DNA of 63,847 bases, the filler included. It is 4 parts of 4 records of this genome, joined end to end, with 100 filler letters (N's around TTAATTAATTAA, not from the genome) between each part and the next. Parts side by side here need not be neighbours in the genome. Positions count along the whole stretch, not along the records: positions 39,806 to 55,687 come from DRR723986_3481; 3 more parts are not named here. One strand, written 5' to 3'. Shown here one piece after another: positions 21,918 through 55,787 of this stretch. Made by a program: the position numbers and the translations under genes. The notes beneath the pieces are model-generated. The model was not told where the DNA came from and searched no databases. It saw nothing but the letters and a program-made list of their open reading frames with translations. How positions within the stretch are numbered: the first letter of the stretch is position 1; the number at the start of each line of letters is the position of its first letter.

Positions 21918-22003
21918 ATCTTGGCCAGGATCTGGTCCGTCCCAACTCAAAAGCAGAGGCACCTTCAAAGTCGGAAAACAAGAGAGTTTTTCAACGAAAT
22001 AGG
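21918..22003 (+). mobile_element. Possible IS1182/IS5-type right-end remnant
   Basis: LARIWSVP-like transposase C-terminal tail followed by GAGTTTTTCAACGAAATAGG, resembling the ends of this IS group (recalled, not searched). Confidence 0.4.
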
Positions 22004-22239
22004 CGGAAAGCGGGCATTCGCTGCGGTCAATGCAAATGACCGGAATGGGCCGACAGGAGACTATCGATTAAGAGGCCAAAATAGTGGGATAGCTGCGGTT
22101 CGCACGGTATCTGATTAACTGCGGCTTCCAGATTCATAGCGCCTGTCCTCGAAAGATTGGGATGGAGGCGCATTTCTGGGTGGCGGCATTGCTGCCTTTG
22201 TCCTGCTCAGCGAATGGGTGCCATAGTCCTCCCGCCGCA

Positions 22240-22530
22240 GACTGATCGAGCCATGCTAACAGGCTTGCTCTGACGTCAGCAGATATCTCGAACTGGGGCG
22301 GCCCGTCTTCTTTCGAACCACCACTGTGCTTATACGGATCGCAGCTCCACCGACCGTCGTTCCGATCTTCAACGTTACTAGATCGAAACCTCGCAGTTTG
22401 CTGTCGATTGCAAGTTCGCACAGCACCCGGTTGCGCGTCCGTCCTTCCCGATCGAGGAAAAAGCGGATCGCCCAGATCTGGCGTTGCCTGAGAGGCTTCT
22501 TAACTCCAACGATTCGACCAGCATTCCATA
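22240..22530 (-). pseudogene. Small tyrosine recombinase, frameshifted and truncated
   Basis: Stitched minus-strand frames read WNAGRIVGVKKPLRQRQIWAIRFFLDREGR..ELAIDSKLRGFDLV..KKTGRP / QFEISADVRASLLAWL. The catalytic HxxR/Y half is absent. Confidence 0.75.
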
Positions 22531-29622: not shown

Positions 29623-29722
29623 NNNNNNNNNNNNNNNNNNNNNNNNNNNNNNNNNNNNNNNNNNNNTTAATTAATTAANNNNNNNNNNNNNNNNNNNNNN
29701 NNNNNNNNNNNNNNNNNNNNNN
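29623..29722. other. Artificial contig spacer
   Basis: N44-TTAATTAATTAA-N44 (stops in all six frames). Confidence 0.98.
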
Positions 29723-39705: not shown

Positions 39706-39805
39706 NNNNNNNNNNNNNNNNNNNNNNNNNNNNNNNNNNNNNNNNNNNNTTAATTAATTAANNNNNNNNNNNNNNNNNNNNNNNNNNNNNNNNNNNNNNN
39801 NNNNN
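39706..39805. other. Artificial contig spacer
   Basis: N44-TTAATTAATTAA-N44. Confidence 0.98.
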
Positions 39806-39883
39806 CGCTGATCACCTGCCTCGGCGCTGGTTATGCCTAACCTACTCCCACAAGCACATCATATGGCGCTCTAACGCACCCAT

Positions 39884-39925
39884 AGGTTCTTTGGACGCAA
39901 TATATAGTATACGGTGCCGCGGCTC
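39884..39925 (+). other. Putative lambda-type cos site (cosQ-cosN-like)
   Basis: AGGTTCT + 23 nt ending TACG + GTGCCGCGGCTC. Same spacing as lambda GGGTCCT + 23 nt ending TACG + GGGCGGCGACCT, and about 460 bp upstream of a GpA terminase. Confidence 0.55.
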
Positions 39926-40136
39926 CCAGGAATGGTTGAAAATGCAACTAGTTTTCAGCATGTCACGCGCCCCCGCTGACCGCATCCCATCAGGGTGAGC
40001 CCGCGACGCGCCAGCTTTCCCGTTGATCCTCAAAGCATTACAGGTCTCCCCAGCTTGCACCGCTCCCAAACTATTGAACCACCGGGCGGAGAGATTAAAT
40101 TCTTGTCACGAGGAAAAACGACGAGAGAGCGATCTG

Positions 40137-40391
40137 ATGATAAACGGAAACCAATGCATTGCAGCACGGGCGCTGGCACGGCTCAGCGTGAGGCAGCTTG
40201 CGATTGAGTCTGGGGTGTCTGCGAGCACAATCATCAGGCTGGAGGCGGGCAAGCGCATTGATCCTGAAAACGCCGGCGCGATCTCCCGTGCTCTGCATGA
40301 CCACGGTATCCAAGTACTGACCCCGGGCGATGGCGCTGAGGGCGATGGCGCGGCTGTTCGCCCAGATGGATGGAGGCCGAAACGTGGCTAG
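40137..40391 (+). CDS. XRE-family HTH protein
   Basis: QCIAARAL..SVRQLAIESGVSASTIIRLEAG. Confidence 0.8.
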   Translation: MINGNQCIAARALARLSVRQLAIESGVSASTIIRLEAGKRIDPENAGAISRALHDHGIQVLTPGDGAEGDGAAVRPDGWRPKRG

Positions 40392-43152
40392 CTTTCAACC
40401 CTCTCACAACGGCCGCGAAGTGATCAGAAAGGCAGAAGCCGCTGAAATCCTTGGCATTCATCACAATTACATCTCGCGGGCGTTCGTCAAAACCGGCATT
40501 CTGACTGATCTCAGGCCCGAGGGTGTTGAGGGTGTTTACCGCGACGAAGTAGAGAACGCCGCAGCGGCCCGCGACGGCGGTGTTGCCGATGCACCAGAGA
40601 ATGAAACGGCGGCAGAGCGCTACGCCAGCGCCCAGCTTAGGCAGGTTCGCGCGACGCTGATCAAGGTTTCACGCAAGCACAATGACACTGCTGAGGGCCT
40701 GATCCTTGCTCACGATGCCCAGCGCGTCACGGCGGTTTGTGCGGATGCATGGGCGAAGCACGTCAGTGCTGCCGAGCCTCCATTTCTCTCCGATATCGCC
40801 CCGGCCGGCGCTGCGATTTACAAGCGGGACATCGAATCCGCGGTTGAAGATATGCGCGAGCAGGTCAGGCTGGCGTTTGCCGGTGATCTGATGCCACCCG
40901 ACCCCGCGACTCGCGCCTTGCTCGATCCTGTGACCGGTGTATCGCAGATCAATGATAAGATCGCCGATGTCAGGGCCCGTACCGCCAACACCAAGGCCGA
41001 TACCATCCTGCTTGAGGACGGCGCTGCTCGTGGTGTGTTTGTTGACCACGGCGACACGCGCCGCAAAGTCCAAGGCATCGCTGCCACAGCCCGGAACCAA
41101 ATCACCAACATCCGCCACAGGATTCAAGTTTACGTGCCCGTAAGCCACCGCAGTCAGATCACCTCTGACATTTTTGAGATGCTCAGCGCAGCAGCCAACA
41201 AAGCTGCGAAAGGCGTGAAGTCCAAGGATGATACAGCCGGCATGGCTGAGGTATTCGCAGCAGCCTTGCGCCCCCTTGAACCCCTGAGCGGCAGCGAGTG
41301 GCAGAACAAGCACCGCCGTCTTGACTCGTCCGTTTCTGCACGCCCGGGCCCGATGCTGATGGAATTGACACCCTACATGCGCCTGCCTCTCGATCTTGCT
41401 TGCGGCGCTGATCCGAACGTGCGGCAAGTGACGTTTGCATCCGGTGCCCAGCTGTCCAAATCGGAGACTTTGTTGCTCTCGACCGTGGGATATTTCATTG
41501 ACCGCAGCCCTGCCGGGATCGTGGCCGCATATCCGACTGAGGGGCTCGCTAAAACCTTTGCCGCCACCCGCTTCCCTGCCCTGCTCCAGACACCCACTCT
41601 TGCCGCCAAGGTGGATGAAGTGCGCGAGGACAAAACCCGAAAAGGTCGCGCCGAAGCCATGACAAGCCGCAGCTTTTCTGGGGGCAATCTGGCAATCGTC
41701 AGTGCAGGTTCTGTCGCGGAACTATCCGGGCGCCCCGCCAAGTTGATCATCGCCGACGAATTGGACCGTATGACCGGGACAAAGGAGGGCGATCCGTTTG
41801 AGCTCCTGCAGGCGCGTAGCATCACATTCCCTGATCGCATGGCCGTTGTTGCCTCGACTCCCACGCATATTGAGACGAGCCGGATCTGGAAACTGTTTCT
41901 TGAGGGATCACAGGCTCACTACTTTGTGCCGTGTGACTGCGGGCATTCCCATGTGCTCGACTTCGACAACCTGCAGGCAACAGACCCTGATAACCCCGAC
42001 AATGTGGATTCCGCTGCCTACATCTGCCCCAGCTGCGGCGAAGCGTGGGATGACGCCCAGCGCTTAAAAGCAATCGATCATGGCGAATGGAAAGAGGCGC
42101 GGCCCGATGTGAAGGCTCACAAGAGCTTTCATCTCAACTCGCTCAACTCACCATTCATGACCAATGCCGAGCTTTACAAGAAAAAGCGCAACGCTGAGAA
42201 GGGCGACATTGAGACCAAGATTACCTTCACAAACCTCTACGCCGGTTTGCCATGGGATGACTCTGACGATGCCAGTAGCCCTGAGAAAATGGCCGAGCGA
42301 CTGCGCCGTGATGCGATGCTGCATGATTGCTCGTGGGACTCGATTCCCCCGGAGTGTCTTGTGCTGACTGCCGGCGCGGACATCCAGCAGGACCGGATCG
42401 AGCTCACGCTGGTCGGCTGGGGTGAGCCAAACCGCGCTGACGGTGATGGCACAACGTGCTGGGTGCTTGGGCATACCGTGTTCGAGGGCGACACAAGCGC
42501 GGACTCCGTTTGGGATGATCTGGACGAGTTTTGCAAAGCCCGTTTCCAGCACCCTTTTGGCGGTGAAATGATCATCAGCCGAACCTGTGTTGACACCGGC
42601 TACAACACGCAAAACGCAATGAAATTCTGTGCCAGACGCCCGAGCCGGTACTTCGCGATCAAAGGCAGCAACCAATTCACGGCGCCAATCTGGGCACAAT
42701 CCAAGAGCAAGCCCAAGCGAGGCGAGGCGAAGTTGCATCTGGTCGGCGTGTCACAGATGAAATTGGCGCTTTTCAAGTCGATGCTGCAGGCCGACGCTGG
42801 CAATGAGGGCCATGTGCGTTTTGCCGACATGGACCAGCATAGCCCGCTTGGGATTGAAGGCTTTGCGGATCAGCTGACCAGCGAATACCTGTTCACGTCC
42901 TTCGGGACAAAGGGACCGGTGCAGGAATGGAAACGCCGCGGCCGTGTTGATCGTGAGATTCTGGATACGATTGTCTATGCCAGCGCTGGGCGCAGGAGCA
43001 TGGCTCATATCCGGTGGAATGATCTGCGTGACCGCCTGACCGTCCGCGAGACCCCTGCCGCACCAAACCCCGGCATCACCACCCAGAACCACCCAACCCC
43101 AACCGGCAACACACCCACCCCAGCGAAAGGAGGCTGGGCGGCTTTCGAGTAA
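40384..43152 (+). CDS. Phage terminase large subunit (GpA family) with N-terminal small-terminase-like extension
   Basis: GpA motifs: SEW, TPYMR, AQLSKSE, LIIADELDR, ASTP, CxC..CPxCG, GADIQQDR, DTGY, AIKG, EILDT.VYA. About 290-aa N-extension with HTH and Nu1-like coiled coils. GTG start with GGAGG RBS. Confidence 0.9.
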   Translation: MASFQPSHNGREVIRKAEAAEILGIHHNYISRAFVKTGILTDLRPEGVEGVYRDEVENAAAARDGGVADAPENETAAERYASAQLRQVRATLIKVSRKHNDTAEGLILAHDAQRVTAVCADAWAKHVSAAEPPFLSDIAPAGAAIYKRDIESAVEDMREQVRLAFAGDLMPPDPATRALLDPVTGVSQINDKIADVRARTANTKADTILLEDGAARGVFVDHGDTRRKVQGIAATARNQITNIRHRIQVYVPVSHRSQITSDIFEMLSAAANKAAKGVKSKDDTAGMAEVFAAALRPLEPLSGSEWQNKHRRLDSSVSARPGPMLMELTPYMRLPLDLACGADPNVRQVTFASGAQLSKSETLLLSTVGYFIDRSPAGIVAAYPTEGLAKTFAATRFPALLQTPTLAAKVDEVREDKTRKGRAEAMTSRSFSGGNLAIVSAGSVAELSGRPAKLIIADELDRMTGTKEGDPFELLQARSITFPDRMAVVASTPTHIETSRIWKLFLEGSQAHYFVPCDCGHSHVLDFDNLQATDPDNPDNVDSAAYICPSCGEAWDDAQRLKAIDHGEWKEARPDVKAHKSFHLNSLNSPFMTNAELYKKKRNAEKGDIETKITFTNLYAGLPWDDSDDASSPEKMAERLRRDAMLHDCSWDSIPPECLVLTAGADIQQDRIELTLVGWGEPNRADGDGTTCWVLGHTVFEGDTSADSVWDDLDEFCKARFQHPFGGEMIISRTCVDTGYNTQNAMKFCARRPSRYFAIKGSNQFTAPIWAQSKSKPKRGEAKLHLVGVSQMKLALFKSMLQADAGNEGHVRFADMDQHSPLGIEGFADQLTSEYLFTSFGTKGPVQEWKRRGRVDREILDTIVYASAGRRSMAHIRWNDLRDRLTVRETPAAPNPGITTQNHPTPTGNTPTPAKGGWAAFE

Positions 43153-43210
43153 CCACCACCTACCACCCACCCACCAACCCCAACAAAAGAGCTACGTGAA
43201 GGACACACAA

Positions 43211-43357
43211 ATGCTTGATTTTATTATCACATCCACAACAATCACCCTGGCAATTGCCTACATCGCAATCCTTGCGGAGATGGCCTTTGACACGCTGCAG
43301 CAGCGACATGATCTCGAACGCGCTGCCGAGCGCAAGCTGTTGGGGCTCGGGGGCTGA
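43211..43357 (+). CDS. Small membrane protein (48 aa), hypothetical
   Basis: GAAGGA RBS; MLDFIITSTTITLAIAYIAILAEM hydrophobic N-terminus; below the ORF-track cutoff. Confidence 0.5.
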   Translation: MLDFIITSTTITLAIAYIAILAEMAFDTLQQRHDLERAAERKLLGLGG

Positions 43358-43409
43358 AATTGCCCAACCGAGGCACTATTTCAATCATAGGATTATGAAA
43401 GGACAGCCC

Positions 43410-43652
43410 ATGCAAGACCACGAGGTGATCGCATTTCTGCGCAGGCTCGGCGCCCTCGATGCCTCCATATGGCACCTGCTCAAACATGCGGACCGCACAG
43501 ACGAGTACACCCTCGCCCGTGCATTTTACGCCTGCGACGGACTCAAACGGGACGCTGCACAGCATCGCTACGGGCACCTCGGCCGCCCCGAAGATCATTA
43601 CCCTGCCCCTCAGCCACAGACTCAGCCACAGGCACCGGCGGCAACAGCATGA
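43410..43652 (+). CDS. Hypothetical phage protein
   Basis: AAAGGA RBS; ATGA overlap with the next gene. Confidence 0.55.
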   Translation: MQDHEVIAFLRRLGALDASIWHLLKHADRTDEYTLARAFYACDGLKRDAAQHRYGHLGRPEDHYPAPQPQTQPQAPAATA

Positions 43653-44194
43653 GCGTCACAATCGATCTGAGTGAAATGCGGGCCCTTGAGCGCAATCTGC
43701 GCCGATATGGCAATGACTTCGCGGATAAAGTGCTGCTGCGGTCCGTGAACAAGGTCGCGAGATCCACCAAGACCAAAGCCATCCGCGCCGTCCGCGAGGC
43801 TGCCAATTTCGACCGCGTGGGCCTTGTGCGGGACGTGACGAGCGTCAGCTTCGCATCCAAGGCGCGACCCTTCGCGGAGATCACGATGAGGAGCGGATGG
43901 CAGACACTCAAGCGCCACCACCCCAGCCCCCGGCAAGGCGCGGCTGGCAAACCGTTCCGCCGTGCGCGGCCATGGGGGGAGTCTCGCACGTACCAAAAGG
44001 CGTTCCATTTGAGTAACGGGCTGCCGGCGATCCGAACATCGAGCGCACGTTTTCCGGTCAAGGTGCTGCACGGCGCCAGCGCGGCAAGAGAACTGGAGCG
44101 TCCGCAGGCAAACAAACAAGTAACGCGGTATGTCGGCGAACGCCTGCCTGCAGAGGCGCTGCGGTACAGCAAATATATGTTAAGCCGACTCTAG
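43649..44194 (+). CDS. Phage minor tail protein Z (gpZ)-like
   Basis: Basic 181-aa protein: RSVNKVARSTKT..R, KAF, R.SSARFPVKVLHG, RLPAE. Confidence 0.6.
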   Translation: MSVTIDLSEMRALERNLRRYGNDFADKVLLRSVNKVARSTKTKAIRAVREAANFDRVGLVRDVTSVSFASKARPFAEITMRSGWQTLKRHHPSPRQGAAGKPFRRARPWGESRTYQKAFHLSNGLPAIRTSSARFPVKVLHGASAARELERPQANKQVTRYVGERLPAEALRYSKYMLSRL

Positions 44195-44328
44195 TCTCGG
44201 GCAATCAACCGGGCCTCTCATGGTTTGCCGCTTCGACTTACCATATTGGAAATATTATCGATTAGAAACAGCCTGTTGCAATGATGTCTTAAGGTGATAG
44301 ATTAACCTTATTCAGAAGGAGAATCATC

Positions 44329-44511
44329 ATGCAAGCCACCACGCCACACGCCACAACGCCCACATCTGAGCCCATGCCCGCCGACACGCCCAGCGCGTCT
44401 GAAATGCTGCTTGATGTGCTGCTTGAGATTGAGCAGAACACCCACCGCCACGAGCATGCCCGCGTGCTTGAGTTGCTCAGTGAGGCGCGGGGTTATGTGA
44501 CCATGTGCTGA
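44329..44511 (+). CDS. Hypothetical protein
   Basis: GAAGGAG RBS after an AT-rich promoter-like stretch. Confidence 0.55.
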   Translation: MQATTPHATTPTSEPMPADTPSASEMLLDVLLEIEQNTHRHEHARVLELLSEARGYVTMC

Positions 44512-44552
44512 GACCATGTTTGCAAGGATCGTTTTTGATTGTATTGGAAGGC

Positions 44553-45218
44553 ATGAGATTTGCGATTGCCGATCAAGTGAGGGTCACGCCTTCCCCGGGA
44601 GCACGCGGTTCTTGCTCTTTCTGCGGAGCCGAGCTTATTGCCAAGTGTGGCCCCCAGAAGATTTGGCATTGGGCTCACAAACGCAAGGCGGACTGCGATC
44701 ATTGGTGGGAGAATGAAACGGAGTGGCACCGCAACTGGAAAGAGCAGTTTCCTCCCGATTGGAGTGAGCAAGTCCAGTTTTCTGTGGATGGCGAAAAGCA
44801 CATCGCCGACATCAAAACTGATCTGGGGCTCGTAATTGAGTTTCAGCACTCGCCGATCAGCTCTCGCGAGCTCTGGTCTCGCGAAGACTTCTACCAGAAA
44901 ATGATTTGGGTCGTTGACGGCGCAAGGCTGAAGTCGGATTCGGCCGCTTTCTTCAAACACATAAAGAACAAAGAACGCAAAGACATTAACGGTACTGAGA
45001 TTTTCATATTCAATCCGCTCGTACCCAAAATAACGAAGCGGTGGATGATAGCTCAAGCTCCAGTGTTCTTAGATTTTGGAGATGGCGACCTCTGGCGGAT
45101 CTCCGTGCAAAAGGGAATTTGGCAGAAAGTCGCCAGCAAGACGCCTAAGACCGCATTTATAGAGGCGCTTTTGTCGGACAAAGATCCGCTCGCAGTTGTT
45201 GACGAAATGCACTTCTGA
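44553..45218 (+). CDS. CoiA-like PD-(D/E)xK nuclease
   Basis: CxxC..KCG..WHWAH..C, ETEWH, HIADIK, VIEFQHS and MIWVVDG motifs. Confidence 0.8.
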   Translation: MRFAIADQVRVTPSPGARGSCSFCGAELIAKCGPQKIWHWAHKRKADCDHWWENETEWHRNWKEQFPPDWSEQVQFSVDGEKHIADIKTDLGLVIEFQHSPISSRELWSREDFYQKMIWVVDGARLKSDSAAFFKHIKNKERKDINGTEIFIFNPLVPKITKRWMIAQAPVFLDFGDGDLWRISVQKGIWQKVASKTPKTAFIEALLSDKDPLAVVDEMHF

Positions 45219-45408
45219 GAATGGCCCAGCGCGGCAGATCTGCTACTTGAGATTGAAAGGGCGGCCCGAGCTTGACCGAGCGCGAGATATGGTTACCGAG
45301 ACTGAAACTATGGGACGAGGATCGAATCCAAATGACAGTAGCCAAGCGAATGCTGGCGATCTAACGTGTGGTTCTCGAACCTTTCACATAGAATACTTGA
45401 GGTTACCC

Positions 45409-47118
45409 ATGTCAGCGAATGCAAAACAGATTCTTGGCGACATCGTTGAGCAACGCCGTAAGGAGAGCATGCCAGAGCTGTCCCTACAGGATTTTTTTGA
45501 GATTTTTTCTGCAGAACAAATTACAAAAGACTATGCGCTGAACTTCGAAGAATTAGAGGCTTGCATTGTTGATGGCGAGCACGATGGCGGCATTGATTCA
45601 GTGTTCGTTTTGGTGAACGGAGACCTCGTAGTCGAAGATACTGATTTGAGCTCCTACAAAAAGAACGTGGTTATTGACCTAATTGTTGTACAGAGCAAAA
45701 CCGCTGGCGGTTTTTCTGAAGATCCTATCAATAGGATAAAATCCGCTATGGAAAAACTGCTCGACCTCACCACTGACTTTGATACGCTTTCACAGTACAA
45801 TGAGCAGGTCAGAACAGTCTTTGACAGATTCCGCACAACATACCGCACCCTTGCCTCTCGTTTCCCAGATCTACGCATAGAGATCAAATATGCCGCGATG
45901 GCGGCCGACAGTGATGTTCATGACAACCTCAAAACCAAAAGCGATGAGCTAGTTAGCAGAGTTCAATCTATGTTCGATGAAGCATCTGTTGATTTTTCAT
46001 TTCTTGGAGCTAAGGAAATCCTTTCGCTCGCAAGGCAACAGCCAAACCAAACGTTTAGCCTTGTGTTTTCGAAGTCGCTGCCCGGTGACAATGGATATGT
46101 CGTCCTAGCTAAACTCAAGGATTTCAATAAATTCCTTCGAAACGACGGAGAGGCTGTTCGGCACGACCTATTCGAATCTAACGTTCGCGATTATCAGGGT
46201 TCGACAGAAGTAAACTCAGATATTAACGAAACCCTTAAATCAGCGAGTGATGTAGATTTTTGGTGGCTGAATAATGGAGTCACAGTGCTTTCCAGCAAAG
46301 CAACTCAAGCCGGGAGTGCCGTCACAATTGAAAATCCGCAAATTGTAAACGGCCTTCAAACAAGTTCTCAGATAGCCCGGTTCTTTGATGAGGGCGGAAC
46401 GGATGACAACCGGATGGTAATGGTCAAAATTGTTTCATCTGAGGATGAAGCCGTTCGAGATCAAATCATCAAAGCAACAAATAGCCAAAATACCGTTCCG
46501 AGAGCATCACTTCGCGCAACTGACAAAATCCAACGAGACATTGAGCACGCCTTAAAGATGGGCGGTTACTTTTACGATAGAAGGAAAAACTTCTATAAAA
46601 ACCAGGGGCGAGCAGCGGCAAAAATAGTTAGCATACCATTGCTGGCCCAAGCAATGATGACTCTTCTTCTCGGTGAGCCTGATAATGCAAGAGCTCGGCC
46701 ATCTTCTTTGATTAAGGAGGATGATGTGTACAATTCACTTTTTGCCGAGAGCCATCCAGTTGACGCCTATTTGGTTGCAGCAGACCTAATAAAACGTGTT
46801 GAGTCTTCATTGAAGACGAGAACCGCCTATACAGCGCAAGACCGAAACAATCTTCGGTTTTATTGCATGTATTGGATCATGGGCTGGGAATGCAAATCCA
46901 GCAGCATAACAGCCCCCAAGGTAGCGGCAAAAAAAGGCTTGATTTCAGATCCAACGTTGGAGGCCGGAATCGACAAAGTTGCTTCACTTTTCTTTGACGC
47001 CGGAGGGACGGACCAGTTAGCCAAGGGCCCAGACTTCAAGAGCCAGCTGAGAGATCAGCTTAACGCCGGGATTGAAAGCCATTTTGGGAATGGCAATGGA
47101 GCCCCGACCTCGGATTAA
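45409..47118 (+). CDS. AIPR-family (abortive infection phage resistance) protein
   Basis: DGGID..QSK N-domain; FESNVRDYQG, FWWLNNGVT, QIVNGLQT and ATNSQN motifs. Confidence 0.9.
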   Translation: MSANAKQILGDIVEQRRKESMPELSLQDFFEIFSAEQITKDYALNFEELEACIVDGEHDGGIDSVFVLVNGDLVVEDTDLSSYKKNVVIDLIVVQSKTAGGFSEDPINRIKSAMEKLLDLTTDFDTLSQYNEQVRTVFDRFRTTYRTLASRFPDLRIEIKYAAMAADSDVHDNLKTKSDELVSRVQSMFDEASVDFSFLGAKEILSLARQQPNQTFSLVFSKSLPGDNGYVVLAKLKDFNKFLRNDGEAVRHDLFESNVRDYQGSTEVNSDINETLKSASDVDFWWLNNGVTVLSSKATQAGSAVTIENPQIVNGLQTSSQIARFFDEGGTDDNRMVMVKIVSSEDEAVRDQIIKATNSQNTVPRASLRATDKIQRDIEHALKMGGYFYDRRKNFYKNQGRAAAKIVSIPLLAQAMMTLLLGEPDNARARPSSLIKEDDVYNSLFAESHPVDAYLVAADLIKRVESSLKTRTAYTAQDRNNLRFYCMYWIMGWECKSSSITAPKVAAKKGLISDPTLEAGIDKVASLFFDAGGTDQLAKGPDFKSQLRDQLNAGIESHFGNGNGAPTSD

Positions 47119-47159
47119 TTCGACCTATTGTCGAGCGTCCCCCCCCTTTTGCTGCACTG

Positions 47160-47825
47160 CTATGCGGCAAACCGCTGCTGCTCAGCATCATAAAGGCGAT
47201 GGGCAGCCTCGGCGCAGATCGCCGTCAGGTCGGGTGCCCTCAGATCCTGAGCATCGATCACGTCGCCATCATCGGCATAGTCACCGCGCAATGGCGCCCA
47301 ACCGCTCCGCAAAGCACGGCGATAGGAGCGAAACGCATCATGAAAACACGCCAGATCAACGCAGATATGACCCATTAGATGCAGATCATTGCATTTGACC
47401 GGGCGATAATCGAGCGCCCAAGGCAGCAGGTTGGGATCAGCCTCAAGATCGCGAGACAGCAGCGCGATTGCCATATTGTCGAACTCAGTATCCCAGTATC
47501 CATCGCGCGAGAGACTCACGAACTGGGCGATCACCAGCTTGCGGGCCTCTGCGGGTGTGACGAGGTGGACTGACTCGCCCCGCACAAAGCCAAGCCGATG
47601 CGCGACCCTGTGGATATCATCCCGATGTAGCCAAGTGTAATGCGCTGCGAGGCGAGGCATCGCCATAAAGCTCTCGCGGGACAGACGCCGCATCGCAGCT
47701 TTGAGATTGAGGTCGGTCGGCACCTGCCAGCCTTCTTCTGCAAATGCAGATTCAGCGGCGCCGCGTTTGGTGATATTGATGTAATGAAGGCCCTCAGCCG
47801 GGGCGGGGTATTTGGTCGTGAACAT
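47160..47825 (-). CDS. Hypothetical protein
   Basis: 221-aa ORF with element-like codon usage. Confidence 0.6.
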   Translation of the reverse strand: MFTTKYPAPAEGLHYINITKRGAAESAFAEEGWQVPTDLNLKAAMRRLSRESFMAMPRLAAHYTWLHRDDIHRVAHRLGFVRGESVHLVTPAEARKLVIAQFVSLSRDGYWDTEFDNMAIALLSRDLEADPNLLPWALDYRPVKCNDLHLMGHICVDLACFHDAFRSYRRALRSGWAPLRGDYADDGDVIDAQDLRAPDLTAICAEAAHRLYDAEQQRFAA

Positions 47826-48199
47826 CTCTTTGTGTCCTGAGTTGCGGACGGCGATTGTTCACGATAGAATCTGGAAGCGGCCTTGAATTTTTAGCGGTTT
47901 GGGCCGATATCTTGATAGTCGTTGTCGTGATCAACGGAGCCATCCTTGGTTGCAGAATTTAAGAGCCATTGCGTTGGTAGCGCAGTGGCTCTTTCCCTAT
48001 TTAGGGTCAGCAAAGTGACCTACAATAGACAGGGCGCCCATCCTTCATTTTTTATATTGATTTTTTTGAAATTCTATGAGCCAGGTTTTTCGCGGCAGTG
48101 CTGATTGATTCGCTTCGCCCCGCCCAGCGCCGCTAACAGCCTAAACGCAAAGAGACCGGGGCACATCGCGTGATCCCCGGTCAACAGCCCTGCGGGCGC

Positions 48200-48433
48200 T
48201 CAAAAGGCCTTCATGGTGTGTTTACCGTTCCATGCGATGCGAAACTCAACCGCCTTGCCACCGCATTCGCGGCAAACAGCCCGCCTCAGCGCGTCAACGG
48301 TTGTTTCGGGTGGGTTGGGCAATGATAGCAGGTCAGCAACCGCAACGCCCCGCACATGATCAGTCCTGCACCAGAAATGCAGAGCCATTCCAGGCAAGTC
48401 GGTTAACCGGGTTGGAGTGATCGAGGTCTGCAT
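48200..48433 (-). CDS. Small hypothetical protein with Zn-ribbon-like C/H..CxxCG
   Basis: WCRTDH...CRECGG. Confidence 0.5.
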   Translation of the reverse strand: MQTSITPTRLTDLPGMALHFWCRTDHVRGVAVADLLSLPNPPETTVDALRRAVCRECGGKAVEFRIAWNGKHTMKAF

Positions 48434-48526
48434 GGGATGGATTATGGCACGAGCGCCAGCGCCTGTCGCGAAGTTCAAAGGGGACGGAAATTATAACTCG
48501 CGGCACTCCGAGGCTCATAACTTGGG

Positions 48527-49936
48527 TCATTTTGCCAGCCGCCAGCCATCATCATACTTGACAAAGCGAGCGGTTACTCTTTTCGTACTGCCGAGTTTTT
48601 CGTAACCAAAGTATCTGGCCTCTGGCTCGTAGCCGTAAAACATCGCTGTAAACTCGACGAACTTTTCTTTGTCGTCACCGCGAATGCCGTCTACACTGTG
48701 AGCCAAGAAATGCCCTGTTGTAAAAATACATTGGCCGTCTGAAGAGCAATGCGATTTATACTTCGGTGCGACAATAAAATCAGCCGCAACACTTATACGC
48801 CCCTGGGATGCACGACCGGTAAGCCAAGTAACTTTGCTTAAAAAACCTGCATTTATAAGATACCGAGAATAGTACAGATCTTCTAGCTTAAGATTGGGCA
48901 AATCTCCGGAACGCGCACCTGAATTTATGCCCTTATTCACAAAGTGGTCTATCTTTCTCATTGCGCTATGGAGTTGGGCTTCACTTAGCTTGCTACCCCC
49001 TATTGCGAAAGGGTCAACTAAGCGACGAGGTTGAGAAACATATAGTATTTCTCTATTACCTCCCCAAGTTCGGCTCTTAAGGATGCTTAACGCACTTTCT
49101 CGAGTTAACTTTCGCGGGGTCTGATCTTTTGGAGCGGGCGGCTGGGAGTACTCCACAATAAAGCTTCCAAGGCGCTTTACTTGCGCCTCCCGTTGGCGCT
49201 CTGAAGAGAGAGCTCTTTTGTCCAGCTGTCTGTTTCTTGCAATCTCATCTTTCCGACGATCAATTCTTTTTAGTTCTGCTTGCAGCATGCCCCAATAATT
49301 TTGTTGACGTATGACCCAAGCAGGCTCACGTTTGCTTTTCCTCAAATCCATGGACATTACGCGCAGAGCCTGACCACTTGTCCTTGGCAGTTCTCCAACA
49401 TAAACATATATATTGTCGAAGCGGGCTTTGCGGTTATAGCCGCATTTCTTATCAAACCTCTCAGTTAGATAATTAAAGATCGGTTTTCGTACCCACGCAC
49501 CCCATAGAGCATAGCCTTCCGGCAAAACAACCTGCCAGTACCTATCCCTCCCGATCTCCGCAGGCTTGCAGCTATCTCTAATGAATTTTATGGCTCCGTA
49601 ATCTATATCGTCGTAGAAGTCTCCTCGCTTGAGCACCAGCCCGTGCCCTGGACCAACCCTTGTAATAAATGTGGGTTTCTTGTTTTCCCAACTCACAACT
49701 GTACCCGGCCCATCGGCCCAACCGTCAACACACAGGCCATCCCATGTCAGTGTCTTTGTGATGCTCTCTGGGTGAACGTACATTGAGCACTCTACTCCGT
49801 CTGTCCGAATTTTCACACGATAATCGTCAGACAACTTTCGCTCTTGAGCGGCTACTGGAGAGTTTGCTGCAATAAGCACCAACCCCAAAACGAATGCGAG
49901 TAGTCCCCTAATTAACAACAATTCATATCCTCTCAA
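48527..49936 (-). CDS. Hypothetical secreted protein
   Basis: Signal-like N-terminus, WDGLCVDGWADGPG motif, C-terminal KYDDGWRL; low GC. Confidence 0.7.
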   Translation of the reverse strand: MRGYELLLIRGLLAFVLGLVLIAANSPVAAQERKLSDDYRVKIRTDGVECSMYVHPESITKTLTWDGLCVDGWADGPGTVVSWENKKPTFITRVGPGHGLVLKRGDFYDDIDYGAIKFIRDSCKPAEIGRDRYWQVVLPEGYALWGAWVRKPIFNYLTERFDKKCGYNRKARFDNIYVYVGELPRTSGQALRVMSMDLRKSKREPAWVIRQQNYWGMLQAELKRIDRRKDEIARNRQLDKRALSSERQREAQVKRLGSFIVEYSQPPAPKDQTPRKLTRESALSILKSRTWGGNREILYVSQPRRLVDPFAIGGSKLSEAQLHSAMRKIDHFVNKGINSGARSGDLPNLKLEDLYYSRYLINAGFLSKVTWLTGRASQGRISVAADFIVAPKYKSHCSSDGQCIFTTGHFLAHSVDGIRGDDKEKFVEFTAMFYGYEPEARYFGYEKLGSTKRVTARFVKYDDGWRLAK

Positions 49937-49945
49937 TGCAGAACA

Positions 49946-51790
49946 TCACAGGCCAAACTCCCCCCCAGACGCCAATCCGACGACTTCCAAGTCATAAGCA
50001 CCGGTCGATTGCCCCGAATAACCGCCTGCATTTACAAAAAACGTACCCGAAAAATCAGGGGCAAAAATGATCAAAGAATTCACCATAGATCCATCGGCAT
50101 TTGTGCCAAAGCCGCCGTCATCATTGAAAGCTATCTGTTGGCCGCCTGCGTCCATCAACCGGAGGAAGCTATCCAGGCGAGAACCCACTGAGGCATTCTG
50201 GAAGATCGCGTATGACCTCCCTGCCTCAAGTTGAACTGAAAACCAATCATAGTCACCGTTTGCGTTGATTGAAGAAGACACAACTTGCCCATCCGGCAAG
50301 ATAGATGAGGTGGTAAAAATATTGCCGAGAATATCGCCGACTGGGCCATCCGCTGGACCACCGACTGGGGCCAAGCCCTCAAACGGATTGTCGAACACAC
50401 CAGAAACCTGGATCAGAAAGTCATCTTCCGCCGCCACAGCATAGAACTGGTCACTCAGACCTTTAGCTGTCACAATACTATCCTGTGTACCGTCGAAACT
50501 GTCCATAACAGTTCGCGCGTCGGCAGTGTCACTCATGCCAAGAATTGTTGAGAAATAGATACCAATGTCAACTTTGTTGTCCAAAAACGCAACGTCGTCT
50601 GCCTTTTGTGCTATGAACTCGTCTGTCGCTCCATCAGCATTCTCGGCCCTAACCCCACGCAGAACTTCTAAAATAAATGTGTCACGCCCAACTAAGCCAG
50701 CGTTTAGAAGTCCTACCCAAAATTCCAAACCCGTTGGATCAGGTGTGCGCCCCAACACATTGTTGTAGACAGCTTCTGCGAATGTTTCGTTTGAGGTGCC
50801 AGATGGGTAGGTCGCAGCATATTCCGGCGAGTTAAGAAATGCTCGCGCGGACTCTTCCATCGAAAAACCATTGGCAAAAGCACTGGCCCAAAAGAAGAGA
50901 CCTTCTGCATCAGGCGCCCTATTAAAATAAGCGATGTAGAGTTCAGTGAATTCCCGGAACGCTATCTCTGGGAGATCTCGAAACCCTAGGTACTTCCCCG
51001 CTTCCCAGGTTCCACTTCCGGATACTGAAAGAAACTCTAGCACTTCCACATCGACGATTTCAGTTTCGATTGAAGATGACTTCCCTTTTACCTTGATCGA
51101 GTCGCTCGAAATCAGAATGTCAGTGCTACTCTTGAATAGAGATGTATGAAGCGTATCCACCCCCCCACCGCCATCGAAAAGACCATTACCGACATGGAAA
51201 GCAGTGTCGTTTCCAGCCTCACCAAAAATCTCTTCGTTACCGAGGTTTCCGTTTAGCCGGTCGTCACCGGCACCTCCATAGATGGTGTCGTTCCCAAGGC
51301 CACCCTCTATGTAGTTATCTAGCTCATTTCCGTCTATTCGCTCACTGGCAGACGTACCGAAAATCTCAATTTCAAGCTGCGGAGGGGGAGGAGGAGGGGG
51401 AGGAGGCACAACAAAGCTAACCTCTCCCAGCGAACGCAAGAAATTTAGGAATGCAGAACTTGATCCAATAGTACCAAGCGTAGCGTTAAAGTAAGTTGAG
51501 TATTCAAGTTCTAGGCCTGAGATGACGTAAGTGATATCGCCCTGCAGGGAACGTTGAGTTATCGTGTTTATCGTCCCACGAGTACCATATTCGCTGAAAC
51601 TGCCTTGCAGTTCCATCGTGTGCACTGTGAAAGACGTACCGAATGCATCGTTTTTTACCCGAGCGGTCCCGAACAGAGTATCGCCCGAAGGCAGTCGAGG
51701 CCCATTGAATGTGTCAGAAATGCCTTCAGGCACGAATGTATGCTCAATCTGCCGCCTAGGCAGATCGTTGAAAATCTCAATTTCGATCAA
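49946..51790 (-). CDS. Surface/secreted protein with RTX Ca-binding repeats, DUF4214 (S-layer-like) and C-terminal PPC domain
   Basis: GGLGNDTIYGGAGDDRLNG, LYIAYFNRAPDAEGL.FW, YNNVLGRTPD..GLEFW, GDYDWFSVQLEAG..NDDGG; poly-Pro linker. Confidence 0.82.
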   Translation of the reverse strand: MIEIEIFNDLPRRQIEHTFVPEGISDTFNGPRLPSGDTLFGTARVKNDAFGTSFTVHTMELQGSFSEYGTRGTINTITQRSLQGDITYVISGLELEYSTYFNATLGTIGSSSAFLNFLRSLGEVSFVVPPPPPPPPPQLEIEIFGTSASERIDGNELDNYIEGGLGNDTIYGGAGDDRLNGNLGNEEIFGEAGNDTAFHVGNGLFDGGGGVDTLHTSLFKSSTDILISSDSIKVKGKSSSIETEIVDVEVLEFLSVSGSGTWEAGKYLGFRDLPEIAFREFTELYIAYFNRAPDAEGLFFWASAFANGFSMEESARAFLNSPEYAATYPSGTSNETFAEAVYNNVLGRTPDPTGLEFWVGLLNAGLVGRDTFILEVLRGVRAENADGATDEFIAQKADDVAFLDNKVDIGIYFSTILGMSDTADARTVMDSFDGTQDSIVTAKGLSDQFYAVAAEDDFLIQVSGVFDNPFEGLAPVGGPADGPVGDILGNIFTTSSILPDGQVVSSSINANGDYDWFSVQLEAGRSYAIFQNASVGSRLDSFLRLMDAGGQQIAFNDDGGFGTNADGSMVNSLIIFAPDFSGTFFVNAGGYSGQSTGAYDLEVVGLASGGEFGL

Positions 51791-51914
51791 AGCATTTTCC
51801 CCCGAACAATCGTGGTATTTCTATCAAGAATATTGGCAGTCTTGTCAGGGTTGAATTCTTTCCAATAAAAGTCAATAGGTAGAGACTTTTGGCGTACGAG
51901 ACCCCATTTTCTTC

Positions 51915-52205
51915 TTAATCCTCGCTTGACGACAAGCTCACGCGAAAGGGAGTGGAAATGCGTTCTGTTGGTCTGGTGCTCCAATCCACCACCGAGCAGA
52001 GAAGCGGAATTCTCTGCGCTGGGCTGACCCCTTTAACGAGCAGTGCCCCCGGCGACGGCATGACATGGGGCGCGAGGCGACACCGCAGATTAACCCGCTC
52101 TATTTCTCGCAGATCACAGTCAGTCCTGATAGCGGCGAACTGCAGAGCTTGGTCATAGTTCGGGCTCGTGCCTGTGGTTTCGAGGTCATAGAACACAAAA
52201 CTCAC
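51915..52205 (-). pseudogene. Exodeoxyribonuclease I (SbcB)-like N-terminal fragment
   Basis: FVFYDLETTG..DQALQFAAIRTD..PSPGALLV. Similarity ends after about 65 aa; ExoII/III motifs are absent. Confidence 0.75.
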
Positions 52206-53242
52206 GCTGCAACCCTGCTGTCTTCAGCCTCACTTGGCAGCGAGTACGGGAGCACAGACGCTATTTGCTCCGCATCCCCACGAGCTAGCAACCACAATTC
52301 AGGAAGGGGCTGTTTCTTTTGAGATGTTGCCCTGTGTCTTGCGTCCCACGCGCCGCGATCTGACCTCAGTGTTTTTTTTGCTCGGGCAGATGTGACCAAT
52401 GGTATATCGCACGGCTCAGAGGTTCGCTTGGGAATCCCCGGCTCATAAGGTCCCGTGAGCTTTGGTGTTCGTGTTTTTTTTGAGATCAGTGCGCTGAGAG
52501 ACTGCACTGCAGACGGTGAAACGGCGCCTTGATCGACAGCGAGGTCGAGGGCGTCCGGGCAGAAGAATAGAGCCCCGTCGTCGTCAACGCATCGTACTGC
52601 AGGCACCGCAAACGCGCCATCCGACCAAAAGTCACAGGGGTCGGCAAAACACCCGACCAGCTCCTCTGATGAAATCATCATTTCATGAGCGAAGTCGTGG
52701 ACCAAGAAAGGCGATAGGCCTTCTTTCGCGAGTCCAGCAACATCAGATTGCCCAGTCAGATAAAGTTGCCAAGCTACACGGATGTCGTCTGTGGACGCGC
52801 GAGACACATTGTAGGGATCAACGACCTCAAGGCAATCCTTACAGAAGGCCCGAAACCCAAAAGGATCAGAGGCGGAGGTCAGCGTCAAGCGCTCCTCGCT
52901 CGCGAACATGGCAACTTCCGCCACACTGGTTGTGCCATCTCCATACCTAATCAAGTGCTCAGCCTCTGCGTGGGTCGGCCGTACCTCTCGGGCCCCCCTC
53001 CTGCCCTCCACAATGATCTCTCCAAAATCAGGGCTCAGATGAGCGCTTATTCCGAACTCAGATATTAGCGGTGAGGGCTCCAAAGTGTCCCCCCAGAACC
53101 AAGGCTCGTACGGCAGGCTCAGCAGGCCCCACCTGATGCCGGGGAACTCCTCGGCAAACGCGAATAGTGCTTTTGTGTTGTGGTACGCTGAGGCGCATGA
53201 CACCGCTTCGGCAGGAGGGTTGTACGCATGCTGCTGCACCAC
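52202..53242 (-). CDS. Hypothetical protein
   Basis: 346-aa ORF; GTGA overlap with the exonuclease fragment; start uncertain. Confidence 0.55.
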   Translation of the reverse strand: MVQQHAYNPPAEAVSCASAYHNTKALFAFAEEFPGIRWGLLSLPYEPWFWGDTLEPSPLISEFGISAHLSPDFGEIIVEGRRGAREVRPTHAEAEHLIRYGDGTTSVAEVAMFASEERLTLTSASDPFGFRAFCKDCLEVVDPYNVSRASTDDIRVAWQLYLTGQSDVAGLAKEGLSPFLVHDFAHEMMISSEELVGCFADPCDFWSDGAFAVPAVRCVDDDGALFFCPDALDLAVDQGAVSPSAVQSLSALISKKTRTPKLTGPYEPGIPKRTSEPCDIPLVTSARAKKTLRSDRGAWDARHRATSQKKQPLPELWLLARGDAEQIASVLPYSLPSEAEDSRVAA

Positions 53243-53682
53243 AATAGGCCGAGCTGGCCCCGCTGGACAGGCCGGGACGCGGCGCTCACTGTCTTGCGTG
53301 GCTTCTGATCTGGGTGAGGCCCTATGAGCTTGGCATTAGGCTTGGATGGCTGCGCTTTTGCGCTTGGCACGCGAGGGATAACTCGATTAACCACAACCAA
53401 GTTCAGCGCTCGATAGTGAGCAAGCCAGTCCTGCTCTTTGGCTTCGAGATCCTCCAGCGCAATACCGCTCTCCAAAATAATGAAGGAAGGATTTCCTTTA
53501 GCGTACATGTCCCTAACATATAGATTGTGGCTGTGGTGTTGGTGTTGGTACTGCCGCCTGACGGGGTTGTCCGTGCTGCCGATGTAGCGAGTGCCGAGCT
53601 CCTCGTTTTCGATCAGGTAGACACAGTGCAAATTTTGTTCGGCTTGTTTGTGAATCTTGGTTGGGCTTGTGGCTTTTTTCAT
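53119..53682 (-). CDS. GIY-YIG nuclease-domain protein
   Basis: CVYLIEN..RYIGST..RR..QH..E..N catalytic pattern. Confidence 0.75.
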   Translation of the reverse strand: MKKATSPTKIHKQAEQNLHCVYLIENEELGTRYIGSTDNPVRRQYQHQHHSHNLYVRDMYAKGNPSFIILESGIALEDLEAKEQDWLAHYRALNLVVVNRVIPRVPSAKAQPSKPNAKLIGPHPDQKPRKTVSAASRPVQRGQLGLLWCSSMRTTLLPKRCHAPQRTTTQKHYSRLPRSSPASGGAC

Positions 53683-53870
53683 TCGTTAGTGCTCTTGCTA
53701 AATATCCCTCTATCCATTTGGCGGGCATGGGCCCTTGGGGTGGGTGGCGGTCGATTTGTTAGTGCTGCACCCCCAGAAAACGCAAATTCACCCTGCCCAG
53801 CGCTGGAATGCGCAAGGGTATTTCAGAAAAAAGGCGTTTCTAGGGATTTGGTATGCTAGGCTGTTGGTGG

Positions 53871-54089
53871 TCAAAGGATGCCCTCAAGCTCCTGTGCCAT
53901 GGTCTGTACTGTTCGCCGTTCGGCAAGCAGCTTATTGATCAGGGGGCGCAGTTCTGGGCGCTTTTGATCCTTGGAGATGCCCGCAATCAGCCTGATGGCG
54001 TTGTCAATTTCTTTGATATACGTGGTATCGTCGCCGCTGATGGGAGCAGATGCAGCGGGTGCTGCGGTGGTTGTCTGTTGTTCGATCAA
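53871..54089 (-). CDS. Hypothetical protein
   Basis: 72-aa ORF downstream of the integrase with GAGAGG RBS. Confidence 0.55.
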   Translation of the reverse strand: MIEQQTTTAAPAASAPISGDDTTYIKEIDNAIRLIAGISKDQKRPELRPLINKLLAERRTVQTMAQELEGIL

Positions 54090-54195
54090 AGGATGACCCT
54101 CTCATGTGTGGTCCCGTCCTTTGTGTCGTGGGCATTGGCCCTTTGGGATTCGATTTGTGTACAGATTAGAGCCGAAGTGACTCCCGTGCGCTAGT

Positions 54196-55506
54196 CTATA
54201 GCGCCACTTTCTTTAGGGCCTCATGGCGAACCTCATCCCCTCCCCCTGTCCCGTAGCGTATTTCCTGCAATGCGTGCCCAAAGATGTCACGGCGAACACG
54301 GTCCAAGACTCCAGCCTCAATCATGCGATCCTCCAGTGAGTGCCGCAGGCCGTAAAGCGTGTGGCTTGGCGTCTCCATCAGCTTGTTATCACGCATGAAT
54401 TTGTTGATCGCTGCTGACTCAGTTCCCTTGCCTGCATACCGCGGAAATAGGTCCTCACTGCGCTCAGCCTCGGCCTTCATCTTGGCATCAATTGCCGCGT
54501 CCAGTGAAACGCCAACAAGCGGGATGCGGCGCTTGGAGTTTTTGTTCTTGAGCTCCCGGCCTTCGGGCTTGATATCAATCATCGGGATAGGCCCATCAAG
54601 CAGAACGTGGTGCGTCTTGAGCCCACTGATCTCGCTCACCCGACCACCCGTGTTGACCATTATCAGAGCAATGCGTCGCGCCTCGTCATTCATTCCGCTC
54701 AGAGCGTCAGGTGCCAGCAGTTTGTCGGTGATCCATTCACGGGAGAACGCGGCCCGTGTGTTGACCTCAGCCCCTTCAAGGGTCAGGTCAGACAAAGGCA
54801 GATCGAGATCAAGCTCCATTTCACGGTTGGCCGTCTTGAGAATCTTCGCCAGCGTGTGAATGCGCTTGTTTGCGGTGGCCGTCTGGATTTTGCCCGCGTC
54901 CACTTGGGTTTTGAGCCATCGCGTGAACACCCGCATGTTCTGCCGTGTGATCTCTGCAAGGTCCAGATCGCCAACAGCCTCGACAAACTGGTTCACCACG
55001 AGGGCACGAGGATCGCGCCAGTTCTTGACTTGCCGGTCAGTCTTGGCGCTCAAGGCTCCGGTTTCCTCGGCGTGACGAAAAAAGAAGTCGAGCGCGGTAG
55101 TGATCGACACGCGCGGCTCATCCACAAGGCCGAACGCCGCTGTTTGACGGGCCTCTCGCGGGATCTCTGCGAAAGGCTCATCAGGGCGTTCAACCGCAGC
55201 CGCACGGCGCAGGATCTCGGCAACGGAAATATCAGCAAGGTCTGCTGCGGAGCGGTATTGCAGCCCCATGCGCCCTGCATCCTCTTTGGCTTTCTTGAAG
55301 CGACGAGCGGCGCTGTCGCTGTTACCATCGAGAGCATCCTCCCATCCGGCGATCATTTCCGCCCAAATGCGGGATGCTTTGCCCTTGGCCTCAAACTCGC
55401 TGTCTGTTTTTAAGCTCATCGAGATGGTGTGTTGATCTTCGATGCGGCTATAAACGGTTGGCACCCGCTTTCTGAGCCACCAAACCTTGCCTCTTTTTAC
55501 GATCAT
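54196..55506 (-). CDS. Tyrosine integrase with N-terminal DUF6538 domain
   Basis: WWLRKRVP..SLKTDS N-domain; catalytic R (TGGRVSEI), K (LKNKNS), YGLRH, FGH, RYG. Confidence 0.9.
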   Translation of the reverse strand: MIVKRGKVWWLRKRVPTVYSRIEDQHTISMSLKTDSEFEAKGKASRIWAEMIAGWEDALDGNSDSAARRFKKAKEDAGRMGLQYRSAADLADISVAEILRRAAAVERPDEPFAEIPREARQTAAFGLVDEPRVSITTALDFFFRHAEETGALSAKTDRQVKNWRDPRALVVNQFVEAVGDLDLAEITRQNMRVFTRWLKTQVDAGKIQTATANKRIHTLAKILKTANREMELDLDLPLSDLTLEGAEVNTRAAFSREWITDKLLAPDALSGMNDEARRIALIMVNTGGRVSEISGLKTHHVLLDGPIPMIDIKPEGRELKNKNSKRRIPLVGVSLDAAIDAKMKAEAERSEDLFPRYAGKGTESAAINKFMRDNKLMETPSHTLYGLRHSLEDRMIEAGVLDRVRRDIFGHALQEIRYGTGGGDEVRHEALKKVAL

Positions 55507-55515
55507 GTTCTGCCC

Positions 55516-55546
55516 TGTGTACAAAATGTGTTACGTTTTGTGTTAC
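55516..55546. repeat. Direct repeats TGTGT(T)AC, putative integrase arm-type sites
   Basis: TGTGTACA 55516, TGTGTTAC 55527 and 55539; further TGTGTACA copies at 55628 and 54156. Confidence 0.55.
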
Positions 55547-55637
55547 AATATCGCAGGCGAACGAACAATCCACGCCCAGCGCGTTGCTTGAAAGCCCTTG
55601 TTTATATGATATAGAGGTAATTGGGAGTGTGTACAAG

Positions 55638-55687
55638 TGGCGGACCATAGAGGATTCGAACCTCTGACCTCTGCCTTCGGAGGGCAG
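55638..55687 (-). tRNA. tRNA-Arg(CCG), 3' part (gene cut by contig end, or att duplicate)
   Basis: Minus strand reads CTGCC-CTCCGAA-GGCAG (anticodon arm), AGAGG-TTCGAAT-CCTCT (T arm), ..GGTCCGCCA. Confidence 0.88.
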
Positions 55688-55787
55688 NNNNNNNNNNNNN
55701 NNNNNNNNNNNNNNNNNNNNNNNNNNNNNNNTTAATTAATTAANNNNNNNNNNNNNNNNNNNNNNNNNNNNNNNNNNNNNNNNNNNN
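55688..55787. other. Artificial contig spacer
   Basis: N44-TTAATTAATTAA-N44. Confidence 0.98.

Follow-up and report, generated by a model that had tools for sequence, protein, structure and literature searches.

It is still poorly understood how the small (TerS) and large (TerL) subunits of a phage terminase come together as a functional holo-terminase; the rings of TerS and the pentamers of TerL are mismatched in symmetry, and their complexes are transient. According to the passages cited here from PMC9611059, lambda terminase is purified as TerL1:TerS2, four such protomers make a larger species, and the TerL1:TerS2 heterotrimer alone is described as having no catalytic activity. The same passages report that the C-terminal region of lambda TerS binds TerL, whereas in P22 it is the first 23 residues of TerL that bind TerS (PMC9611059). 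As for satellites, chromosomal islands that phages can induce (PICIs) are described in the cited part of bioRxiv 10.1101/2022.09.08.507074 as carrying TerS only, while capsid-forming PICIs (cfPICIs) carry terS and terL plus capsid and portal. Phrase searches of the literature, with most subscription journals outside their reach, returned no description of a natural TerS-TerL fusion; the word 'fused' is absent from a 2022 TerS review, and papers pairing it with terminase terms use it in unrelated contexts. Here we describe a locus that appears to encode such a protein, an open reading frame (ORF) at positions 40384 to 43152 (+) of a 63,847-nt stretch of concatenated DNA, hereafter the window. 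We consider it likely that this ORF is a genuine and conserved single-chain terminase, consisting of a winged helix-turn-helix (HTH), a TerS core, a linker, a duplicated TerS core and a complete GpA-type large subunit.

The ORF had been flagged in a first-pass annotation, made by a model from the sequence alone, as one uninterrupted frame of 922 aa. Translation of 40384-43152 indeed gave 922 aa plus the stop codon with no internal stop, and both Pfam and PHROG recognize the product. The longest version of the frame, at 940 aa, begins with ATG 40330, but GTG 40384 is the best-supported start, since direct reading of the sequence places a Shine-Dalgarno GGAGG (40372-40376; the whole start signal, 40372-40386) 7 nt ahead of it and since the upstream HTH_3 gene (40137-40391), stop included, overlaps it by 8 nt. 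Residue numbers below nevertheless count from ATG 40330 unless stated; GTG numbering is lower by 18.

The first line of evidence for a natural fusion is that it recurs. In an exhaustive phmmer search of 1.84 billion cluster representatives with the first 338 aa, seven proteins matched at E <= 1e-3. Six of them are proteins of 904 to 1063 aa (P0002, 922 aa; P0006, 1038; P0007, 1063; P0008, 944; P0009, 904; P0010, 905) that match at their own N terminus and then continue into a GpA large subunit; the remaining match, P0011, a repeat protein of 516 aa, is unrelated and was set aside as spurious. None of the six true homologues found in this search is a stand-alone small protein. The family is rare, with seven representatives including the query against 1.84 billion, and diverse: the extensions of the other six share 23 to 30% identity with the query in an alignment of the N-terminal extension (A1) and 28 to 36% over the stretches matched by phmmer, and the whole fused proteins about 30 to 45%. 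For P0002, BLASTP gave an unbroken alignment over residues 27-905 at 43% identity. By contrast, all 36 IMG/VR loci retrieved with GpA patterns match the TerL part only, from about residue 250-300 on, as do 79 of the 80 best metagenome loci. The remaining one of those 80 is the metagenome contig that encodes P0009, here called L040.

A tree of 102 TerL rows (all 7 fused and 3 unfused proteins, plus 92 TerL ORFs taken from the loci) separated the seven fused proteins from the rest at a branch whose Shimodaira-Hasegawa-like approximate likelihood ratio (SH-aLRT) support is 99. It was built with the quick IQ-TREE method under LG+G4 from 601 of 1514 columns with the extension excluded, after dropping 23 of 115 loci without a 520-760-aa ORF carrying an STPT-type motif. 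This monophyly, as judged from the aligned TerL sequences, fits a fusion that happened once, long ago. Further searches added little: a search for longer proteins with the extension profile recovered only P0010 (the word index being crowded), genome contigs yielded no relatives with the whole protein, a 5-protein alignment or the gpZ-like protein described below as queries, a first metagenome scan with patterns from the query and P0002 gave no match, and a tblastn search of phages and plasmids with the extension was likewise negative.

The large-subunit part is readily recognized. GpA_ATPase (PF05876) matches residues 336-587 (E 2.4e-55; 188.3 bits against a cut-off of 25.6), followed by GpA_nuclease (PF20454) at residues 597-891 (E 3.1e-53; 181.3 bits, cut-off 22.5), and the best PHROG match is phrog_15, 'terminase large subunit' (E 1.4e-158). 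The first-pass annotation had put the beginning of the GpA-like part near AALRPLEPLSGSEW, which fits both the Pfam domains and the unfused relatives, whose alignment starts from about residue 280 in GTG numbering. The junction itself (41218-41334) corresponds to an N-terminal segment of the large subunit that unfused TerLs also possess, aligning with the opening ~40 aa of P0003 and P0004, which are not fused. The ATPase domain (41335-42090) then carries the Walker A sequence AQLSKSE (41446-41466), the Walker B Asp-Glu (41755-41760) and a Zn ribbon (41932-42036), and the endonuclease domain, which is RNase-H-like (42118-43002), has its invariant acidic codons at 42379, 42592, 42955 and 42964. 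In an alignment of nine proteins, the Walker A Lys, Walker B (D458/E459 in GTG numbering, as are the following), the STPT coupling motif (S491-T494), four cysteines (C517/C519/C548/C551) and the nuclease acidic residues (D666, D737, E858, D861) are invariant and all present in the query. Judged by these intact motifs, the large subunit looks functional.

As had been pointed out in the first-pass annotation, the Walker A motif departs from AQxGK[T/S]E: the Gly before the Lys is a Ser, while the Lys and the following Ser/Glu are retained. Of 102 aligned GpA rows, 96 have G here, two have S (the query and P0002), two have A, one has L and one V. With Ser in only two of the seven fused proteins, the deviation is not one that characterizes the fusion. 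At the other end, a Pro/Thr-rich tail (43003-43149) terminates in GGWAAFE, and a W-x-x-F/Y terminus is shared by six of the seven fused proteins; the tail overlaps a block of high DNA conservation described below. The C terminus of lambda gpA binds the portal, and by likeness to it the GGWAAFE tail is a candidate portal-binding end. As a side observation, P0006 and P0007 each contain an intein of about 140-165 aa right after the Walker A Gly-Lys.

Turning to the extension, its alignment starts with a conserved DGR..I...EAA.IL.VS.N......G.LTDL, a winged HTH of the MerR/excisionase/Nu1 style (40408-40584, +), for which AlphaFold2 (AF2) predicts strands and helices at residues 29-83. The HTH, proposed already from the first reading, is borne out by several comparisons: it maps to positions 9-51 of phrog_57 (E 0.0026), the A1 profile matches the small MerR-like DNA-binding protein 6ama (E 0.025), Foldseek finds a MerR-like HTH with the extension model at a probability of 0.98, and hhalign links it to the TerS HTH at 91%. 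Downstream follow a diverged first copy of a TerS helical core (40609-40878), which runs on from the HTH without a break in the hhalign match described below, a Pro/Asp-rich linker (40879-40956) that is gappy and variable in A1 and drops to a predicted local distance difference test score (pLDDT) of 72-78 near residues 181-210, and a well-conserved second core copy (40957-41217). On A1, AF2 gave a confident model of the extension (pLDDT 83.1; predicted TM-score 0.66) in which the secondary structure repeats twice, as H94-122/E124-126/H127-147/H158-182 and again as H211-234/E237-239/H240-259/H271-294. A prediction of residues 19-318 as a complex of two copies scored 0.00, which is evidence neither way.

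What kind of protein this extension derives from was seen in profile comparisons. The N-terminal 317 aa match phrog_57, 'terminase small subunit', at E 3.6e-7, as do four of the seven extensions (best E 1.3e-8); within the query, residues 201-320 map to phrog_57 positions 86-179 (E 0.0033), whereas residues 86-200 scanned alone gave no match to this family. For a closer comparison we assembled the TerS proteins of unfused related loci, taking the ORF directly upstream of terL, which was present in 102 of 116 loci; 90 were kept after a 120-260-aa length filter and removal of L040. BLASTP single-linkage clustering divided these into groups of 87, 2 and 1, the largest being a single TerS family whose members have a median length of 175 aa. 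Eight of nine representative TerS proteins tested belong to phrog_57 (E 1e-19 to 1e-34), and one of the nine, the TerS of phage Mano, scores above the cut-off of Pfam Phage_Nu1, while some others show sub-threshold similarity to Phage_Nu1 or DUF1441.

Against the profile of these 87 TerS proteins, hhalign aligned A1 twice: residues 30-183 with TerS positions 3-150 (probability 95.4%, E 1.9e-8), and residues 210-273 with TerS positions 63-126 (94.6%, E 6.5e-8). Reversed-profile controls stayed at 0.3-0.5%. Tested piece by piece, the HTH alone scored 36.8 (shuffle maximum 17.3), core 1 alone 26.6 (33%, P 4.4e-4, to TerS 84-154; shuffle maximum 15.6) and core 2 alone 56.1 (96.5%; shuffle maximum 13.3), where 60 column-shuffled TerS profiles averaged about 9 with a standard deviation of about 1.8. 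Core 1 is hence much more diverged than core 2, at 33% versus 96.5%. A feature search of the ESM Atlas, a weak but independent lead, had clusters of 160-235 aa as nearest matches, several of them with Phage_Nu1 or DUF1441. By these sequence comparisons the extension is a complete Nu1/DUF1441-type TerS, that is, HTH plus core, with a second and better-conserved copy of the core.

This outcome refines the first-pass annotation. The two Nu1-like helical segments named there both lie inside the repeated units, and each unit aligns with the same part of the TerS profile. Its formula of TerS-TerS-TerL holds insofar as two cores, one a duplicate, are fused to TerL, but not as two whole TerS proteins: a single winged HTH precedes the two cores, so there is one DNA-binding domain per chain. 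The absence of a separate terS gene was likewise upheld for the Nu1-like type. A hidden Markov model (HMM) of the 87 TerS proteins, run with filters off on six-frame ORFs of at least 40 aa, found no separate Nu1-like terS in the window or L040 (other TerS families were not profile-searched), and its top match was the fused ORF itself, residues 211-298 with HMM positions 67-159.

Several observations weigh against a conserved working terminase. The island in which the ORF resides has neither a portal nor a capsid gene, so no partner for the enzyme is encoded nearby, and genomic context is known for only two of the seven family members. In addition to the replaced Walker A glycine, the first Zn knuckle of the query reads C-D-C (41932-41940) where 101 of 102 rows have CxxC, a one-codon deletion unique to the query. 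Such features could be those of a real fusion that has become a functionless relic here, a decaying prophage remnant keeping a terminase and a neck gene by chance. In line with this, portal, capsid, protease and tail genes were found neither in the island nor in the rest of the window by Pfam, PHROG or comparison with ORFs of related loci, and no replication module (primase, helicase or Rep) or helper-responsive regulator was recognized among the ORFs scanned, the scan of 48527-49936 and 52202-53242 being limited to Pfam. Against this reading stand an intact 922-codon frame and the presence of all the catalytic columns that are invariant across nine proteins. The Ser variant is moreover common to P0002 at 43% identity and so has been maintained, and L040 has the same gene order around a terminase that is ~35% identical and also intact. 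We therefore regard decay as an unlikely explanation of the locus.

The other unfavorable points concern the extension. No Pfam TerS model, Phage_Nu1 (PF07471) and DUF1441 (PF07278) included, matched the query at E <= 10 or any of the seven extensions at E <= 1, and the plain HMM-to-sequence search described above reached only E 0.053. Core 1 by itself attains just the 33% hhalign probability given above, the direct comparison of core 1 with core 2 is weak (P 0.0028), though in a register that is structurally expected, and Foldseek searches of PDB and BFVD with the extension model returned nothing at E <= 1e-3. The relationship between extension and TerS is thus a superfamily-level one as far as the sequences tell, visible via phrog_57 and profile-profile comparison only. 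This leaves some room for the extension to be a regulatory or tethering DNA-binding module instead, with a separate TerS from a helper or a distant locus serving the GpA part; the HTH does resemble excisionase and MerR proteins too (phrog_66 in three of the seven extensions, phrog_2474 in two, and 6ama), and only TerS of the Nu1-like type was excluded in the window. What makes us doubt this strongly, more so than the relic, is that the similarity passes beyond the HTH into the TerS-specific helical core, and does so twice, an extent of similarity by which a transposed regulator was also ruled out. Furthermore, among all 115 unfused related loci, 102 carry an ORF immediately upstream of terL, 87 of the 90 ORFs left by the length filter are one TerS family, and the two fused loci have none.

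Lastly, we regard it as highly improbable that the long ORF arose from faulty assembly or sequencing (a stop lost, or a frameshift, between terS and terL), or that its product starts at the internal ATG 41242, even though the window consists of concatenated draft contigs and AAGGA lies 11 nt before this ATG, since six independent proteins have the same uninterrupted architecture, a 485-nt contig of another sequencing run spans 40973-41457 across the TerS/TerL junction with 11 substitutions and no gap, and a Met at 41242 is conserved in none of the six other fused proteins. The conserved architecture and the gap-free bridging contig together exclude a lost stop or frameshift for practical purposes. 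With six full-length relatives of 904-1063 aa in one clade and the junction bridged independently, the natural origin of the fusion claimed at first reading stands, and the artefact that would have undone it is effectively refuted. The read data consisted of low-depth Logan contigs only, in which uncovered bins carry no meaning and in which no joints or molecule ends were seen.

The single-chain terminase is encoded on a contig that takes up 39807-55687 of the window, where separate contigs are joined by three linkers of the form N44-TTAATTAATTAA-N44 (29623-29722, 39706-39805 and 55688-55787). As one linker lies in between, rho, mnmE and mnmG, to the left of the terminase, are not shown to be true neighbors and were ruled out as neighbors of the island; rho is truncated at 39705 by the contig edge. 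The terminase sits in a ~16-kb integrase/tRNA island with the order HTH_3, fused terminase, two small ORFs, Neck1, CoiA-like, AIPR, ORFs without assigned family, RTX/DUF4214, GIY-YIG-like, integrase and the 3' part of a tRNA gene. The first gene (40137-40391, +) encodes a small Cro/C1-type HTH_3 regulator (Pfam E 2.5e-7) with a 43% identical counterpart upstream of the L040 terminase. Downstream of the terminase are two small conserved ORFs (43196-43652, +; 78% aa identity to L040 12750-13208), one of 53 aa and hydrophobic (43196-43357), the other of 85 aa (about 43395-43652), neither with a Pfam or PHROG match; for the small ORF after the terminase, the ESM Atlas offered no usable match either. 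The 53-aa ORF comes right after the terminase stop and overlaps, in another frame, the start of an ORF call at 43215-43652. The first 60 codons of that call look non-coding, and the true second gene probably starts near 43395.

Next in order is a tail-completion or Neck1 protein of the gpZ/HK97 gp10-like type (43649-44194, +; phrog_27, E 3e-17), 87% identical to the product of L040 13208-13756, which itself matches phrog_27 and, below threshold, Minor_tail_Z; tblastn of the gpZ-like protein against phages gave no match. Just past this neck gene, the genes for a CoiA-like nuclease (44505-45218) and an AIPR abortive-infection protein (45196-47118), both assigned by Pfam and on the plus strand (44505-47118 together), overlap head to tail and have a lower G+C content of 46-50%. 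This pair looks like defense cargo. Several island ORFs of 220-470 aa returned zero matches, and when 1133 ORFs from 118 related loci were compared with the window and L040, only the two terminase ORFs matched. The far end of the island is marked by a tyrosine integrase (54196-55524, -; phrog_1, E 2e-23), followed by a tRNA gene that the contig end truncates to its 3' part (55641-55687, -; Rfam tRNA, 34 bits, E 6e-4, 5'-truncated), which is the probable integration site. A comparison of the tRNA end with the other island end revealed no direct repeats of attachment (att) sites in the window or L040.

L040 shows the same gene layout as the island, namely, an HTH gene, the fused terminase (10001-12712), a small ORF, the phrog_27 protein (13208-13756), variable genes, an integrase (20679-22013, -) and, adjacent to it, tRNA-Ser (22217-22306); it too has no portal or capsid gene. 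The conservation between the two is uneven. Window positions 43066-44497 and L040 12628-14077 are 79% identical at the DNA level, a block that takes in the last ~29 codons of the terminase, and a 127-nt non-coding element where the contig begins (39807-39933, strand unassigned) is 84% identical to L040 9407-9534, with runs of 20-32 identical bases, for example around TATATAGTATACGGTGCCGC. The body of the terminase, by comparison, has only about 35% protein identity and the HTH_3 product 43%. This mosaic of conserved flanks and divergent body looks, from the sequences, like an exchange of terminase cassettes between related islands. The 127-nt element has no Rfam match and could be a packaging site, an operator or other regulatory site, or the island end. 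An RTX/DUF4214 repeat protein is encoded on both contigs (window 49946-51790, -; L040 6093-9047, -), with a C-terminal part about 50% identical; in the window its gene lies between terminase and integrase, in L040 beyond the terminase on the opposite side. The layout common to both loci suggests a satellite-like element or a conserved remnant.

If the single-chain terminase is active, its HTH would recognize the element's own packaging site, and the two cores of each chain may supply the self-association surface that two TerS chains give in the lambda TerL1:TerS2 protomer. A head-to-tail order of TerS and TerL is plausible given the lambda and P22 contacts cited above, to the extent that these are described there: since TerS C termini normally bind TerL N termini, fusing the one to the other would preserve the native contact. 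With a single HTH per chain, at least two chains would be needed for paired DNA-binding domains. The GpA part would then nick the DNA and translocate it into a procapsid, which would have to be supplied in trans as the island has no portal or capsid gene. Two further proposals of the first-pass annotation may also apply: the two cores might hard-wire a lambda-like 2:1 stoichiometry, and a fusion that prevents subunit exchange with a helper would be compatible with the island context.

We can also imagine, as a speculation that we would not bet on, that the fused terminase is the engine of an undescribed, capsid-less type of satellite. Such an element would combine a tRNA-Ser island, defense cargo, a self-contained terminase with a portal-docking tail, and neck or tail-completion parts; one chain would stand in for TerL1:TerS2, helper and satellite subunits would not mix, and cassettes would be swapped between islands. 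Were this true, the covalent TerS-TerL linkage would insulate the packaging specificity of the satellite. If the enzyme is active, a neck gene without capsid or portal in a small integrase island already points to an unusual exploitation of phage capsids by a mobile element. Independently of its role, the fusion may be of use: a rare natural fusion could ease the study of the long-elusive complete terminase, and because one chain fixes stoichiometry and connectivity, it would be an attractive target for cryo-electron microscopy and single-molecule work. Core duplication plus fusion would moreover be a route of terminase evolution for which we found no earlier description.

How does the locus compare with known systems? 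Like PICI and cfPICI satellites, it is an integrase island at a tRNA gene with its own packaging enzyme, defense-type cargo (AIPR, nucleases) and no full virion module; unlike them, it has a complete fused terminase together with a gpZ-like neck protein, while capsid, portal and any recognizable replication module are absent. Within the phage collection, the closest TerLs are those of the Roseobacter phages CRP-821/822/823/831, Achromobacter phage Mano and Acidithiobacillus phage AcaML1, with which >90% of the TerL part aligns at 31-34% identity. The TerS proteins of these phages belong to the very family with which both halves of the extension align, yet in these phages terS (153-174 aa) and terL sit side by side as two genes with a portal gene behind them, whereas the window has the two as one fusion with a duplicated core and without a portal gene after it.

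The lambda terminase (gpNu1 plus gpA) differs in its large subunit by a deviant Walker A motif, while that of the query is of the AQxGK[ST]E type with Ser for Gly, and the Pfam Phage_Nu1 model fails to match the query. The two enzymes are alike in having a large subunit of the GpA family (PF05876 plus PF20454) and, by sequence, a winged HTH at the N terminus of the small-subunit part, with a helical self-association region of the Nu1/DUF1441 kind behind it. Both have two TerS cores for each TerL, if the protomer is taken as TerL1:TerS2 as in the account cited (PMC9611059), but here they are part of one polypeptide with one HTH per TerL, the second TerS copy being a core without a DNA-binding domain.

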